DNA of 64,000 nt from Robiginitomaculum sp. (GTDB taxonomy: Bacteria; Pseudomonadota; Alphaproteobacteria; Caulobacterales; Maricaulaceae), in contig NVWK01000012.1 of assembly GCA_002733605.1 (NCBI GenBank), positions 16,506 to 80,505 of the forward strand. Reading direction: 5' to 3'. Under the pieces are notes generated by a model. The model did no database searches and had not been told where the DNA came from. It worked only from the letters and a program-made list of their open reading frames with translations. Position 1 is the stretch's first letter, and each line of letters begins with the position of its first letter. This document shows, piece after piece, positions 47,168 to 53,921 of the stretch. The position numbers and the translations under genes were made by a program.

Positions 47168-47560
47168 ATGAAAAAATTACTTAAATCAGCCACATTGTTT
47201 CTACTCCCGGCAATCGTGTTTCCGGTGGCCCTGAGCGCATGCGCGACAGTCGAGCCGGAGATGGATAGGATATCGATTGATACCCCTATCGCGGAAAACT
47301 GCTATCCGATTGCCTCTTTGGTCAAAGTGACCGTGCCAGCAGTTGTAAAAAGAGGGTTTAGTGTTGTTTCGATCGAAAACCCGCCTGAATATTATACGGA
47401 CCCAGAAACGGGAAAAACAATAACCATCCAAAACCCGCCGATTGAGACCAAAACCCCTTTTTCGCGGATTGTAACACCGGAAAAGCATTATTACACAACA
47501 CCCAAAGGTGAGTTGGTCAACAATATTTGCGAGTTGAATAAATACAATCCAGTTCAATAG
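47168..47560 (+). CDS. hypothetical lipoprotein
   Basis: Lipobox ALSAC after a signal peptide. 130 aa. No family recognised. Opposite strand to the flanking ybgC and tolQ. Confidence 0.55.
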   Translation: MKKLLKSATLFLLPAIVFPVALSACATVEPEMDRISIDTPIAENCYPIASLVKVTVPAVVKRGFSVVSIENPPEYYTDPETGKTITIQNPPIETKTPFSRIVTPEKHYYTTPKGELVNNICELNKYNPVQ

Positions 47561-50343: not shown

Positions 50344-50877
50344 TTACGTCTCGACTTTCAAGACCTTATCCAGTGAGAAGCGGCCCGGCCCGTGTGCGAC
50401 AACAACGAAAAGTGCGATGAACCACCATACATGGCTCCCCCACCATGTGGCAGCATCCGGAAACACAAAGAACTGAATAAACAGGGTCATCCCCAACAAC
50501 ACCAACGCAGAAAGGCGGCTATACAGCCCGAGGATCAAGGTGGCCCCGAAAATAACTTCTGTAAGCCCGGCAATATTGGCCAATCTGTCTATGATAAAGG
50601 TCATAGTGTTGCCGTCTTCGGGGTAATCGTTGAGGGCCGCGGCACAGAGCCGGAGCGCCCCTTTGCGCACCTCTTCGGGGCAAAAGAACTCGTAACGGAA
50701 CAGATCATAGCTCGTTGCATCGAATTTGAAAAAACCTGACCATTTCGCCAAGCCTGAGAGTAAAAACACACGGCCAACAACCACGCGCGCGAACAACAGA
50801 GAAACCGGGCGTAATTTGTCGGCGTGAGGGTGCCAGAATGTGAGTAAACCAGATATGGATTTCATAAAATTACGCAT
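50344..50877 (-). CDS. bufD: DoxX-family membrane protein, fourth gene of the bufferin-type operon
   Basis: 4-TM protein with a DoxX-like LFARVVVGRVFLLSGLAKW motif. The start overlaps the upstream DUF2063 gene by 8 nt. Confidence 0.78.
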   Translation of the reverse strand: MRNFMKSISGLLTFWHPHADKLRPVSLLFARVVVGRVFLLSGLAKWSGFFKFDATSYDLFRYEFFCPEEVRKGALRLCAAALNDYPEDGNTMTFIIDRLANIAGLTEVIFGATLILGLYSRLSALVLLGMTLFIQFFVFPDAATWWGSHVWWFIALFVVVAHGPGRFSLDKVLKVET

Positions 50878-51643
50878 CAGTGTCTCCTGTGAGAGGTTGA
50901 AAAATTTCAGCTTCCACCATTTTGGGCAAAAGTGTGGTCACGTCGCCATCCGGCAAAGCCACAATAGCGAGGTTGAGGGCTTCACCTAAAGGCTTATCTT
51001 GCAAGATTGCTGTTATAAAGGCAAATTCACCCGCACTTAAACTACGCGAGATCACTTCATTTTGATAGCGCCACACAAGCGCCTGCTCAGGGTTTTGGTT
51101 GAGTTCCATGGCCTCAGATATTGCCTCATTCTGTCTAAGCTTTGACCAGATACCCAACACCGGCCAGTCCAAGTCTACGAGCTTGACATCAGGTTTTAAA
51201 GACAGTGTTTGGCTCTCTAAATCAGCTCCAGCACCAACTATATTTGCCAAATCCTGCATCACCAAAGTGGCGCTGTCAGGGGCAATATGGGCTTGTGTCC
51301 ACGCACGGTCCAATCTGGCAAAGCTCTGCAAATAAGGGAGATTATGTTTATCGAGATGTGCGCCTATCAGTTCAGGAAACCGCTCCCCATATCCGACAAG
51401 TGTACGACGGGTCGTACGGTCTGTTTCTCTATATATGCGTGCCAAGGCGGAGGCATATTCATCACCGATCAATGTGGTTACAGACGGATAATTACTGAGC
51501 AAGGCACCCCGCAGGGCACTGGCAGAATTGTTGCTATAAACCCGTACAAACTTCGGATCAAAACCTGTGTTTTCAAAGGCCTCTACGTCGAGCGGGCCTG
51601 TGCCAACAATACTATCTGCCATGGCTTTCATATAGCTCTTCAT
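50870..51643 (-). CDS. bufC: DUF2063-family protein (BufC-like partner of the MNIO enzyme)
   Basis: N-terminal pattern F.RVYSNN...L.GAL...YP....L.G......LA.IY......L..YGERFPE, as I remember it for DUF2063. Overlaps the DUF692 gene stop by 4 nt. Confidence 0.75.
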   Translation of the reverse strand: MKSYMKAMADSIVGTGPLDVEAFENTGFDPKFVRVYSNNSASALRGALLSNYPSVTTLIGDEYASALARIYRETDRTTRRTLVGYGERFPELIGAHLDKHNLPYLQSFARLDRAWTQAHIAPDSATLVMQDLANIVGAGADLESQTLSLKPDVKLVDLDWPVLGIWSKLRQNEAISEAMELNQNPEQALVWRYQNEVISRSLSAGEFAFITAILQDKPLGEALNLAIVALPDGDVTTLLPKMVEAEIFQPLTGDTDA

Positions 51644-52530
51644 GCGCGCCGCTCCTGCGTACAGACGTCTATCAAGGCTTTCTGGGCGCGGGCATGCTCG
51701 CTGAGCAAGTCTTCGAACGGGGGAATATTACCGTCACGCTCCAACAGCACAGGTCTTGGCCCGATATGGGCAAGGGCCGTCTCGAGCAACTCCCAAACCG
51801 GTTCGGCCACAGGGGCTGAATGGGTATCGATGAGCAGGGCTTTGCCCTGAACAGGGTCTTCGGTGAAGCCTGCAATATGGATTTCTCCGACGAGTTCGGG
51901 CGGCAAGGCCCGAATATAGGCGTGAGGATCAATGCCCGTATTGACGGCGCTAATATAAACATTGTTCACATCGAGCAATAGCCCACATCCGGCCCGTTTG
52001 GCAATTTCGACAAGGAAATCAGGCTCATCCAGCTCGAAAGTGCCAGCCATGTAATTTGTCGGGTTTTCAATGAGAATCCGTCTGCCAATCGCAGTTTGAA
52101 AGCTTTCTATGCGCTCGACCATATGGTCTTGCACGGCGCGTGTACGCGGCAATGGTAATAAATCGGCGAAATAGCGACCTTCAAAACTTGACCATGTGGC
52201 ATGTTCGGAAACTTGACGGGGTTCAAACCGGTCAATGAGGCGTTTTAGAAATGCGAGATGATCTGTGTCAAATGGATCAAGGCCACCTAATGACGCCCCG
52301 ACGCCGTGAAAGCTTAGCGCATGACGATCGCGAATGGCGCCGAGCCACGCAAGTCGCGGGCCACCTTCGACCATATAATTTTCCGGGTGAACTTCATACC
52401 AGATTTGTGCCGGATCATGATCGAGCGCCCCGTTGAAAAACTCTGGCTTCAATCCTATTCCGGCACAAATTGGCAGTTCAGTTTTCAAAGCGGGCGAGGC
52501 TCGCCCGCTTTGTTGTTCGGTTATGAGCAT
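51640..52530 (-). CDS. bufB: DUF692 / UPF0276 MNIO-family enzyme (bufferin maturase BufB-like)
   Basis: Blocks characteristic of DUF692: GIGLKPEFF, WYEVHPENYM, LSFHGVGASLGG, VSEHATWS, DLLPLPRT, IENPTNYM, LLDVNNVYISAVN, EIHIAG. Confidence 0.88.
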   Translation of the reverse strand: MLITEQQSGRASPALKTELPICAGIGLKPEFFNGALDHDPAQIWYEVHPENYMVEGGPRLAWLGAIRDRHALSFHGVGASLGGLDPFDTDHLAFLKRLIDRFEPRQVSEHATWSSFEGRYFADLLPLPRTRAVQDHMVERIESFQTAIGRRILIENPTNYMAGTFELDEPDFLVEIAKRAGCGLLLDVNNVYISAVNTGIDPHAYIRALPPELVGEIHIAGFTEDPVQGKALLIDTHSAPVAEPVWELLETALAHIGPRPVLLERDGNIPPFEDLLSEHARAQKALIDVCTQERRA

Positions 52531-52545
52531 TATAGACGCAAAGAC

Positions 52546-52899
52546 TTACAGTGCGCTTTTTGAACCGTGACCATTTGGTGTGACAATGAACTCACAGCTG
52601 CCTTTAGGGGCATATGTCCATGCATCGCCTTGGAAATCAGACGTCGACGTGCCTTGGCAACTTGTGCCAGCGCCAGCTTTGCAGTCATTTTCTCCGGTCA
52701 GGGCAATGCCGTAACACTTATCTTTACGGCCTTTAAGTTTGCCACCCTCAACCCAGCTATTAAATGCAGTTTGCACGTTTTCCGGTGCAGCAGCAGTAAT
52801 AGAGAGCTGTGAATTTGGTTTCGCCATTGCAACGCTCACAGAGGCAGCAAGGATGGCGCCAATAGCGAGAGTTTTGGCAATTGTTTGAGGTGCGGACAT
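52546..52899 (-). CDS. bufA: DUF2282-type secreted Cys-containing peptide (bufferin BufA1-like RiPP precursor)
   Basis: Sec signal peptide (...[10 protein letters not shown]), then the core [45 protein letters not shown] with four Cys in DUF2282 spacing. It lies 15 nt upstream of the DUF692 gene. Confidence 0.85.
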
Positions 52900-53105
52900 A
52901 GTATGTCTCCTTTATTTCACATCTAATTCAAATGAGGCGAACATTCGTCTCAGCTTAGCTATAGCTCTTTATTCAGTCAAGGAATCTGACATTATGCTCT
53001 CATTACGTAACTTGATTGTGATGTGTGCGTGCAGTGTCTTTGCCGGTTTTGGTATTGGGTCTCACAAATAAACTGATCCGAATGCAGAGTGACAAGGTGA
53101 AAAAC

Positions 53106-53564
53106 TCAGTCTGTCACATCAAATACCGACGCACTACAGGTACACGACGCGATTATTTTTCCGGTTTCGATATCTATCAGTTTTGCCTGAGCATGGCCAA
53201 GATTGGTTCCCAGATACACCATTTCCCCTTCTGCACGGCATTTTTTGTTTGGCACGAGCGGACGCATCAATTTGGCTTCAAAGGTTGCGGTGACGCAAAT
53301 TTTCCCCTGCGGCAATGCGCTTACAATCGAAAGCACAGAGGCCGCGTCCAATATCCCCATCGCCCAGCCGCCCTGTACCACCGAGCGCGGATTTAGATGG
53401 GCTTTCAATGGCGTGCCTTCATATGTGCATTTGCCCATTTGCGCCTGTACCAATTCAATGTTCAGGGTTTGCGCCATAGCGTCATAGAGCGGATATTGCC
53501 CGCTCAGCATATCTTGAAGGTTTTTCAGCCCGTTGTTCTCGGACCATTTTCTTATTGTACGCAT
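53106..53564 (-). CDS. PaaI-family hot-dog thioesterase
   Basis: 152 aa. The LNPRSVVQGGWAMGILDAA pattern is typical of PaaI/uncharacterized-domain-1 thioesterases. Confidence 0.72.
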   Translation of the reverse strand: MRTIRKWSENNGLKNLQDMLSGQYPLYDAMAQTLNIELVQAQMGKCTYEGTPLKAHLNPRSVVQGGWAMGILDAASVLSIVSALPQGKICVTATFEAKLMRPLVPNKKCRAEGEMVYLGTNLGHAQAKLIDIETGKIIASCTCSASVFDVTD

Positions 53565-53681: not shown

Positions 53682-53921
53682 TTAATCCTGTTCAGGATCA
53701 TAGCCACCCGAGATGACTTCACTTTTGGCAGCGTCCATCACGGCGTTTTCCAAAGCTTCATCATCGGCAACCACACCGTCTTTCAGCTTTTCTTTCACGA
53801 CCATGAAAGGAGAAGAGGCCGGTTTTTTGCCAGCAAAAGCTTGTGCGGTGAATGTGTTTCTATCCCACTCGCCTTTGAGCGTATAATTTTTACCATCATG
53901 GCCAAATTTTGAAGTCTTCAT
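53682..53921 (-). CDS. hypothetical small protein (79 aa)
   Basis: ORF directly downstream of yebC on the same strand. No family recognised. Confidence 0.4.
   Translation of the reverse strand: MKTSKFGHDGKNYTLKGEWDRNTFTAQAFAGKKPASSPFMVVKEKLKDGVVADDEALENAVMDAAKSEVISGGYDPEQD

Follow-up and report, generated by a model that had tools for sequence, protein, structure and literature searches.

A Buf1-type bufferin operon with an extended precursor and a cysteine-bearing DoxX protein in an uncultured marine relative of Robiginitomaculum and Hellea

Introduction

Four consecutive open reading frames (ORFs) on the minus strand of a 64,000-nt stretch of contig NVWK01000012.1 (assembly GCA_002733605.1, Robiginitomaculum sp.; the whole stretch is called the window below) span positions 50344-52899 and very probably constitute a functional biosynthetic operon for a Buf1-type bufferin, a ribosomally synthesised and post-translationally modified peptide (RiPP) of the captophorin group. 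In the order of transcription the genes are:

52546-52899, minus strand: bufA, bufferin-1 precursor of 117 amino acids (aa) with four Cys (C62, C73, C81 and C102)
51640-52530, minus strand: bufB, maturase in the family of MNIOs (DUF692), oxidative enzymes that depend on multinuclear non-heme iron, 296 aa
50870-51643, minus strand: bufC, DUF2063/HvfC-type partner protein of the MNIO, 257 aa
50344-50877, minus strand: bufD/doxX, membrane protein of the DoxX family, predicted to have four transmembrane helices, 177 aa

As an original prediction made from the sequence alone had described, the four same-strand genes are tightly packed: the ORF list and the sequence give a 15-nt gap between bufA and bufB (with the ATG at 52530 taken as the bufB start), a 4-nt overlap (ATGA) between bufB and bufC and an 8-nt overlap between bufC and doxX.

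Bufferins have dedicated Pfam and NCBIfam models and have already been the subject of several papers from 2024 to 2026. No other MNIO RiPP family is as large: bufferins number in the thousands, and their bufABC order is strictly kept (PMC12452194). In Buf1 of Caulobacter vibrioides the central Cys residues are converted to 5-thiooxazoles, a disulfide joins CysI and CysIV, and the peptide is exported by Sec and binds copper; BufB and BufC are necessary and sufficient for the modification and DoxX is dispensable (PMC11626156). In 2026, bufferins, oxazolin, fontiphorin, gonophorin and bulbicupramide were grouped as 'captophorins' on account of their common 5-thiooxazole, whose formation was generalised to MNIO-DUF2063 clusters (PMC13097082). 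The remark of the original prediction that the family has been studied in very few organisms does not hold, considering these thousands of members and the several that have been characterised (PMC11626156, PMC12452194, PMC13097082). The chemistry itself is established for Caulobacter Buf1 and a few relatives only (PMC11626156, PMC13097082).

Results

Family membership and gene order

Profile searches, which the original prediction had proposed as a check of its bufferin-type assignment, placed all four proteins above the gathering scores of the expected Pfam families. BufA matches DUF2282/BufA1 (PF10048, gathering score 22.4) with 73.3 bits (E 1.5e-20, residues 59-107), BufB matches MbnB_TglH_ChrH (PF05114) with 307.9 bits (E 6.5e-92), BufC matches DUF2063/HvfC_N (PF09836) with 43.5 bits against 27.2 (E 4e-11, residues 7-92), and DoxX matches DoxX (PF07681) with 41.9 bits against 23.6 (E 1.6e-10), with DoxD reaching 24.6 bits. 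The names BufA1 for PF10048 and HvfC_N for PF09836 are those of a newer Pfam release, as given in precomputed annotation. The sequence motifs quoted in that prediction are likewise all present: KCYG, NDCKAG, TSCQG and GSCEF in BufA; WYEVHPENYM, VSEHATWS, DLLPLPRT and LLDVNNVYIS in BufB; RVYSNN and YGERFPE in BufC.

BufB also passes the NCBIfam equivalog 'MNIO family bufferin maturase' (NF050167, MNIO_BufB) with 339.3 bits against a cut-off of 310, and stays below the equivalog cut-offs of HvfB (229.9 bits vs 360), MbnB (68.5 bits vs 325), ApyH and ChrH. An HvfABC/oxazolin-type cluster was rejected on the HvfB score and on the lack of EGKCG repeats in the precursor. No NCBIfam model was matched by BufA, for which only a chance PepSY match appeared at E <= 10. 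Furthermore, a search of the protein collection gave 661 clusters of BufA homologues, some of which bear the name 'BufA1 family periplasmic bufferin-type metallophore', and homologues at 62-68% identity carry that name in NCBI or UniRef.

A search for relatives of BufB, with one genome per GTDB species, returned 329 stretches, the best 80 of which were compared as loci (individual loci are cited by number, L001 and so on). The order bufA-bufB-bufC was found in all 80, with bufB after bufA in every one and the position of bufC right after bufB conserved, and in most of them doxX lies downstream of bufC. This is the strict bufABC order described before (PMC12452194) and, with doxX, the Caulobacter-type gene order. 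Chance is thus excluded as the source of the family and order signals by the Pfam scores and the recurring gene order, and the identification of the bufferin operon is supported.

The nearest GTDB genomes are metagenome-assembled genomes (MAGs) of Robiginitomaculum and Hellea, whose BufB proteins are 72-76% identical to that of the window. An identical BufB also occurs on a 543-kb metagenome scaffold (ENA ERZ23499538, TULL18-1_SAMN07571235_METAG-scaffold_5) and in the Logan assembly SRR5988114; L081 and L082 are the window's own scaffold and its Logan copy, i.e. duplicate records of the window.

The maturase BufB retains its iron ligands

The positions H75, H110, E155, D187, N190, H218, D235, H237 and E264 of BufB, which correspond to iron ligands, are conserved at 97% or more among 83 homologues. 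Seven of them, from H110 to H237, align to H90, E133, D163, N166, H192, D208 and H210 of MbnB (phmmer, 7TCR), and H75 and E264 were placed as ligands by position only. The iron ligands of MbnB itself we take to be H54, H90, E133, D163, N166, H192, D208, H210 and E239. The nearest solved structure to BufB is PDB 3BWW, a Histophilus somni homologue of HvfB (E 1e-38), and the MbnB structures come next. In addition, N190, D235 and H237 of BufB are the counterparts of N175, D242 and H244 of HvfB, whose substitution abolishes activity (preprint 10.64898/2026.07.17.739211).

An alternative product would be an oxazolone-thioamide, as in methanobactin. The isomers are hard to distinguish, and oxazolin was itself first assigned as an oxazolone-thioamide (PMC11252979, PMC12538549). 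In bufferins and the other MNIO-DUF2063 clusters examined, alkylation-assisted NMR (nuclear magnetic resonance), an absorbance at about 305 nm and selective labelling nevertheless favour the 5-thiooxazole (PMC13097082; preprints 10.64898/2025.12.15.693703 and 10.64898/2026.06.05.730506), and BufB fits the BufB equivalog and not that of MbnB. We therefore regard a methanobactin-like modification as extremely improbable here and keep to the 5-thiooxazole.

The start of bufB is marked by a local structural feature:

52487-52511, minus strand: 12-bp GC-rich hairpin, 35 nt 3' of the bufA stop, covering codons 7-15 of the annotated bufB ORF

Folding of the 71 nt that contain the hairpin (52480-52550) gives -23.7 kcal/mol (z = -4.07), an energy that not one of 200 shuffled sequences reaches. 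Because the hairpin occupies the start of the annotated ORF, BufB may instead start at the TTG of codon 15, giving a protein of 282 aa, a length that matches its homologues, and a gap of 57 nt; BufB has 282 aa in L088 and 280 aa in L050. Hairpins that attenuate transcription or stabilise mRNA are common in RiPP operons, and this one could possibly attenuate read-through or stabilise the precursor mRNA between bufA and bufB. Comparable hairpins were found in L004 and L088 and are not present in all relatives, so a conserved attenuator was rejected and the hairpin is regarded as a local feature.

This strong hairpin, together with the lack of a clear ribosome-binding site at the bufB start and the weak conservation of BufC, could also be taken as a sign of a silent or decaying operon that no longer makes the modified peptide, and a related marine MNIO cluster is indeed without detectable expression (PMC12538549). 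Such a remnant is highly improbable: the four ORFs are intact, translational coupling is kept through the 4-nt and 8-nt overlaps, the catalytic ligands of BufB are in place, and the operon and its upstream element are kept across relatives at 60-76% protein identity, unlike at a pseudogenised locus. We read the locus as a working bufferin operon. Because the four ORFs are intact and occupy the same site as in Robiginitomaculum and Hellea relatives despite a BufB identity of 72-76%, the sequences indicate long-term purifying selection on the operon.

Three Caulobacteraceae and Asticcacaulis loci (L022, L023 and L050, at about 3.7-5.2 kb and 8.9-9.7 kb) have a second MNIO-DUF2063 pair, in divergent orientation, adjoining the buf1 operon. 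The MNIO of this pair is 39-41% identical to BufB and probably belongs to a buf2-type cluster.

The precursor BufA carries an N-terminal extension

Three parts can be distinguished in BufA:

52822-52899, minus strand: predicted Sec signal peptide, residues 1-26, with cleavage predicted after A24-M25-A26
52726-52821, minus strand: N-terminal extension of the mature peptide, residues 27-58 (KPNSQLSI...W..G.KLKGRKD)
52579-52725, minus strand: DUF2282 core, residues 59-107, as aligned by Pfam

The signal peptide was read from the sequence, where n-, h- and c-regions are evident (K9, a hydrophobic stretch, and AMA followed by KPN). Around the predicted cleavage site, the 62 aligned homologues all have A26 and N29, and P28 is almost invariant among them; Sec export of BufA1 has been demonstrated in Caulobacter (PMC11626156). 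C62, C73, C81 and C102 are invariant in the same 62 homologues, and the bufA ORFs of the related loci, with few exceptions, encode four Cys as well. With the Buf1 of C. vibrioides as the template for the Cys roles (PMC11626156, PMC12452194), C73 and C81 would be turned into 5-thiooxazoles, and a disulfide would link C62 to C102.

The 32-residue extension sets this precursor apart from the Caulobacter-type BufA1 (about 95 aa), which lacks it. It was found in all 120 homologues listed, from Hyphomonadaceae to Alteromonadaceae, and N29, W49, G52, G57 and K59 are invariant. In the AlphaFold2 model of BufA the extension is the most confident region, with a predicted local distance difference test (pLDDT) score of about 85, and comprises a short strand and a helix at residues 40-50. 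Sequence searches of the PDB with BufA found nothing, and Foldseek with the whole model returned only noise.

In some MAGs of Robiginitomaculum, another gene resembling bufA lies between a long-form bufA and bufB (L007:2388-2993, L008:3815-4546, L009:5071-5907 and also L087); the window does not have it. It possesses a lipoprotein signal (LAAGVGC) and 6-10 tandem 12-residue units inside one DUF2282 scaffold, with 15-23 Cys, and would encode a membrane-anchored bufferin with many modification sites.

A cysteine pair in a loop of DoxX

About 25 additional residues, among them a conserved CX11C pair, distinguish the DoxX protein of the window:

50602-50682, minus strand: insertion in the loop between transmembrane helices 1 and 2, residues 66-92, C66-X11-C78 (FCPEEVRKGALRLC)

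The insertion is found in the clade of the window, in Hyphomonas, in Algimonas arctica (L090) and in Alteromonadaceae (L088); none of the other buf-operon DoxX proteins that we examined has it, including those of every sigma-F-linked locus. Judged by the positive-inside rule from the charge distribution, the loop is probably periplasmic. The AlphaFold2 model of DoxX (pLDDT 84.8) has its best fold match in NACHO/TMEM35A (PDB 9h9e_B, probability 0.99), presumably itself a DoxX-family protein, and also matches the membrane domain of the vitamin K-dependent gamma-carboxylase.

Regulation: no sigF in the window, and conserved elements upstream of bufA

Using SigF and NrsF of the Caulobacteraceae locus L050 as probes (tblastn, E < 0.01), we found no sigF- or nrsF-like gene in the 64-kb window. 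A sigF-like gene adjoins the operon in 43 of 88 loci and in none of L001-L016. For sigma F, the promoter sequence GTAACC-N16-CGAA has been defined by experiment (PMC3511200). Of 77 loci, 42 have it upstream of bufA, with a spacing that is always 16 nt; upstream of the window's bufA it is missing even when two mismatches are allowed, as it is in L001-L015. Control of the operon by sigma F was consequently rejected. The distribution follows the DoxX type: all 18 loci with a Cys-loop DoxX, among which the window and its duplicates are counted, are without sigF and without the sigma-F promoter and have a long BufA wherever bufA is complete, and an adjacent sigF occurs in none of these 18 vs 42 of the 64 other assessable loci, counts in which the loci are not phylogenetically independent. 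Buf1 clusters thus fall into at least two coherent architectures, one linked to sigma F/NrsF and the other the marine subtype of the window. The original prediction was right that an extracytoplasmic function (ECF) sigma/anti-sigma pair and cop genes are missing nearby. The lack of the sigma-F pair is not peculiar to the present copy; it is a trait of the whole subtype, accompanied in this copy by another, conserved upstream element.

The following features lie upstream of bufA:

52976-53021, minus strand: imperfect palindrome TCACAATCAAGTTAC-N16-GTCAGATTCCTTGAC, candidate operator of about 45 bp
52952-52980, minus strand: weak candidate sigma-70-type promoter TTGACT-N17-TAAGCT, seen by eye, with its -35 box overlapping the right arm of the palindrome
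52936-52949, minus strand: small palindrome GACGAATGTTCGCC at the predicted transcription start
52907-52911, minus strand: ribosome-binding site AGGAG, 7 nt 5' of the bufA ATG, of which GGAG is kept in the alignment of relatives

The large palindrome has the two-fold arrangement [TCAC-N6-GTGAC]-N16-[GTCAC-N5-GTGA], also written TCAC-N6-GTKAC-N16-GTCA, and in the otherwise divergent intergenic DNA of the window and eight Robiginitomaculum/Hellea loci it includes a conserved block, TCACAWTCAAGTKA-N6-G-N2-AG-N6-GTCA, with 23 invariant columns. The motif occurs once in the window and was found in nine loci among L001-L010 (Robiginitomaculum/Hellea) as well as in L081 and L082, upstream of bufA in every locus checked. 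The small palindrome reads GGCGAATGTTCGC in L002 and has a close variant, GGCGAATGGTCGC, in L008, and other relatives have a palindrome at the same position. Both palindromic elements are specific to the Robiginitomaculum/Hellea clade.

The large element found no match in Rfam at E <= 1, and RNAalifold gave -2.9 kcal/mol with no compensatory pairs, so a riboswitch or structured leader upstream of bufA was rejected and, because Rfam is empty and covariation is missing, the element is read as a DNA site. Probably, then, a DNA-binding protein controls the operon, with the palindrome of about 45 bp, which overlaps the promoter, as its recognition site. The candidate promoter TTGACT-N17-TAAGCT was not listed by a consensus promoter scan and is poorly conserved in relatives; an ECF41-like or other ECF promoter was rejected by eye, as there is no conserved -10 at a fixed distance. 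When metagenome contigs were scanned for the complete motif, five matches appeared, namely two further buf loci and three copies of one homologous site inside a Ser/Thr-kinase ORF, which look like chance, leaving the scan uninformative about a regulon.

In the Alteromonadaceae version of the subtype the window's motif is absent and a divergent MarR-family gene is present instead. This gene (L088:4969-5514, minus strand) lies about 490 nt upstream of the long-form buf operon, and the intergenic region between them is very AT-rich and without the motif.

These differences bear on whether the same chemistry could serve another role, such as binding another metal or coping with periplasmic thiol or redox stress, with the CX11C loop of DoxX as redox partner. 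The subtype is never accompanied by the heavy-metal-responsive sigF/nrsF or their promoter (0/18 Cys-loop loci vs 42/64 others), the operon of the window lies among constitutive housekeeping genes, its DoxX has gained a conserved Cys pair, and the Alteromonadaceae version has the MarR-type neighbour; moreover, relatives of DoxX are tied to oxidative and sulphur stress, and fusions of MerC with bufferins suggest other metals (PMC12452194). Set against this, both Cys predicted to be modified and their surroundings are invariant in the 62 homologues and the same as in the copper-binding Buf1, all characterised MNIO-DUF2063 products bind copper (PMC13097082), and a missing nearby regulator is weak evidence on function. 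Overall, we consider such a different role improbable and a copper-binding bufferin the better account.

Genomic setting

The operon is surrounded by housekeeping genes over 10 kb on each side. Upstream lie gap, pgk, zapA, a 5-formyltetrahydrofolate cyclo-ligase gene, ymdB, yebC, a 79-aa ORF and a 4HBT thioesterase gene; downstream lie ruvC, ruvA, ruvB and ybgC, followed by the tol-pal genes tolQ, tolR, tolB and pal. The housekeeping setting between ruvC and a thioesterase gene, as originally predicted, is thereby confirmed. No sigma factor, cop or other regulator gene was found within 10 kb on either side. With 0.47-0.55, the GC content of the operon is no different from that of its flanks. 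The ruvCAB genes follow the operon also in L002, L004-L007 and L010, and ymdB-yebC precedes it in L003 (Hellea). Because the site between yebC and ruvC is common to relatives of the clade, the operon was probably inherited vertically; horizontal acquisition was rejected on the same ground and on the GC content.

Between yebC and bufA, the 79-aa ORF (window positions 53682-53921, minus strand) has no Pfam match and the 4HBT thioesterase (53106-53564, minus strand) has a weak one (21.3 bits vs a gathering score of 20.6); in Hellea (L003) yebC lies directly 5' of bufA, which places both outside the conserved neighbourhood. A 130-aa ORF on the opposite strand between ybgC and tolQ (47168-47560, plus strand) has a lipoprotein-like signal (LSAC) and no Pfam match and is kept at the same position in L004, L006 and L010 with 43-47% identity.

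Discussion

In family membership, conserved catalytic residues, gene order and genomic position, the operon of the window is a bufferin operon of the Buf1 type, i.e. a correctly identified member of a known, widespread and already well-described system; only three differences, specific to its lineage, keep it from being an ordinary copy. By analogy, it would have the chemistry, export route, bound metal and physiological role of the characterised Caulobacter homologue. BufA would be made with a Sec signal peptide, and a cytoplasmic complex of BufC and the iron enzyme BufB would oxidise C73 and C81 to 5-thiooxazoles. The precursor would then leave via Sec and be cleaved after Ala26, the C62-C102 disulfide would form in the periplasm, and the folded product of 91 residues would chelate copper via the thiooxazoles and so buffer an excess of periplasmic metal. 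DoxX would be an accessory membrane protein, which in Caulobacter is not needed for the modification.

Several observations weigh against this account, which we nevertheless hold with high confidence. One concerns BufC, which is divergent (39-46% identity even with its nearest relatives) and found no match in the PDB, either by its sequence or by a profile of 31 sequences. Its C-terminal domain resembling a RiPP recognition element (RRE) is suggested at a sub-threshold level: BufC aligns over nearly its full length (residues 26-224) to the NCBIfam model RiPP_RRE_HvfC, with only 22 bits against a cut-off of 142, and the model is matched by 29 of 31 BufC homologues. The AlphaFold2 model of the whole BufA is of moderate confidence (pLDDT 66). 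The extension, the Cys-loop DoxX and the regulation differ from the characterised copy and could alter the function, and no copper-responsive regulator or cop gene nearby links the operon to copper. Furthermore, a related MNIO cluster in marine Microbulbifer showed neither expression nor any reaction to copper (PMC12538549), so that responsiveness to copper should not be taken for granted here.

The closest characterised system is buf1ABCD of C. vibrioides (CCNA_03363-03366, bufferin 1; PMC11626156), which has the same four families in the same order, namely a four-Cys DUF2282 precursor with a Sec signal (a predicted one in the window), a BufB-type MNIO within the same NCBIfam equivalog, a DUF2063 partner and DoxX. 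To the Caulobacteraceae locus L050 the identity is 50% for BufB and 61% for the BufA core. The window differs from the C. vibrioides operon in a mature BufA of 91 vs 68 residues, owing to the 32-residue N-terminal extension; in the DoxX insertion of about 25 residues with its CX11C pair; and in lacking an adjacent sigF-nrsF and the GTAACC-N16-CGAA promoter, with a different conserved palindrome upstream. The four-gene core is also that of the gig (gold-induced genes) operon of Cupriavidus metallidurans and of other sigma-F/RpoQ-linked Buf1 clusters, and the betaproteobacterial loci among those compared have the same order. In these clusters, which metals induce, an ECF sigma/anti-sigma pair adjoins the core genes, whereas the subtype of the window never has such a neighbour.

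More distant systems have parts of this arrangement in common. The hvfABC(X)/oxazolin cluster of Haemophilus influenzae and the fontiphorin and gonophorin clusters also combine an MNIO, a DUF2063/HvfC partner and DoxX and yield copper-binding thiooxazole products (PMC11252979, PMC13097082), but their precursors consist of EGKCG repeats and not of a folded DUF2282 domain. The methanobactin operon mbnABC has an enzyme of the same superfamily with the same set of iron ligands and likewise turns Cys into a copper-binding heterocycle, although BufB and MbnB are only distantly related in sequence (E 2.7e-12; 68.5 bits vs the cut-off of 325). Its partner MbnC is not a DUF2063 protein, its precursor is short and leader-dependent, its product is an oxazolone-thioamide, and this product is exported for copper acquisition, unlike the periplasmic buffer proposed here.

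As a bufferin operon, the locus is one more member of thousands, from an uncultured marine relative of Robiginitomaculum and Hellea, and on that ground it matters little. Only the features of the subtype might be new to specialists; no DoxX variant is described in the main text of the 2025 landscape paper, in which the terms 'extension' and 'MarR' do not occur either. The sigma-F/NrsF-linked architecture is the type that has been studied in Caulobacter and Cupriavidus, and the architecture of the window, which is found in marine Alpha- and Gammaproteobacteria, combines an extended precursor, a Cys-bearing DoxX and a different regulatory input.

A bolder reading joins these features into a distinct, sigma-F-independent bufferin subtype, in which DoxX, having acquired a periplasmic CX11C loop, would act as a dedicated thiol:quinone oxidoreductase resembling DsbB or VKOR, and a regulator bound to the 45-bp palindromic operator would switch the system. 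In such a subtype DoxX might form or recycle the C62-C102 disulfide or set the redox state of the thiooxazole thiols in the extended BufA1, and the N-terminal extension could serve BufA1 for docking or recognition. Taken as a whole we think this reading unlikely. Were it true, DoxX would gain a defined role in bufferin maturation, though it is dispensable in Caulobacter. The subtype of the window offers a concrete way into two questions of bufferin biology, namely the function of DoxX and the regulation of clusters without an ECF pair.

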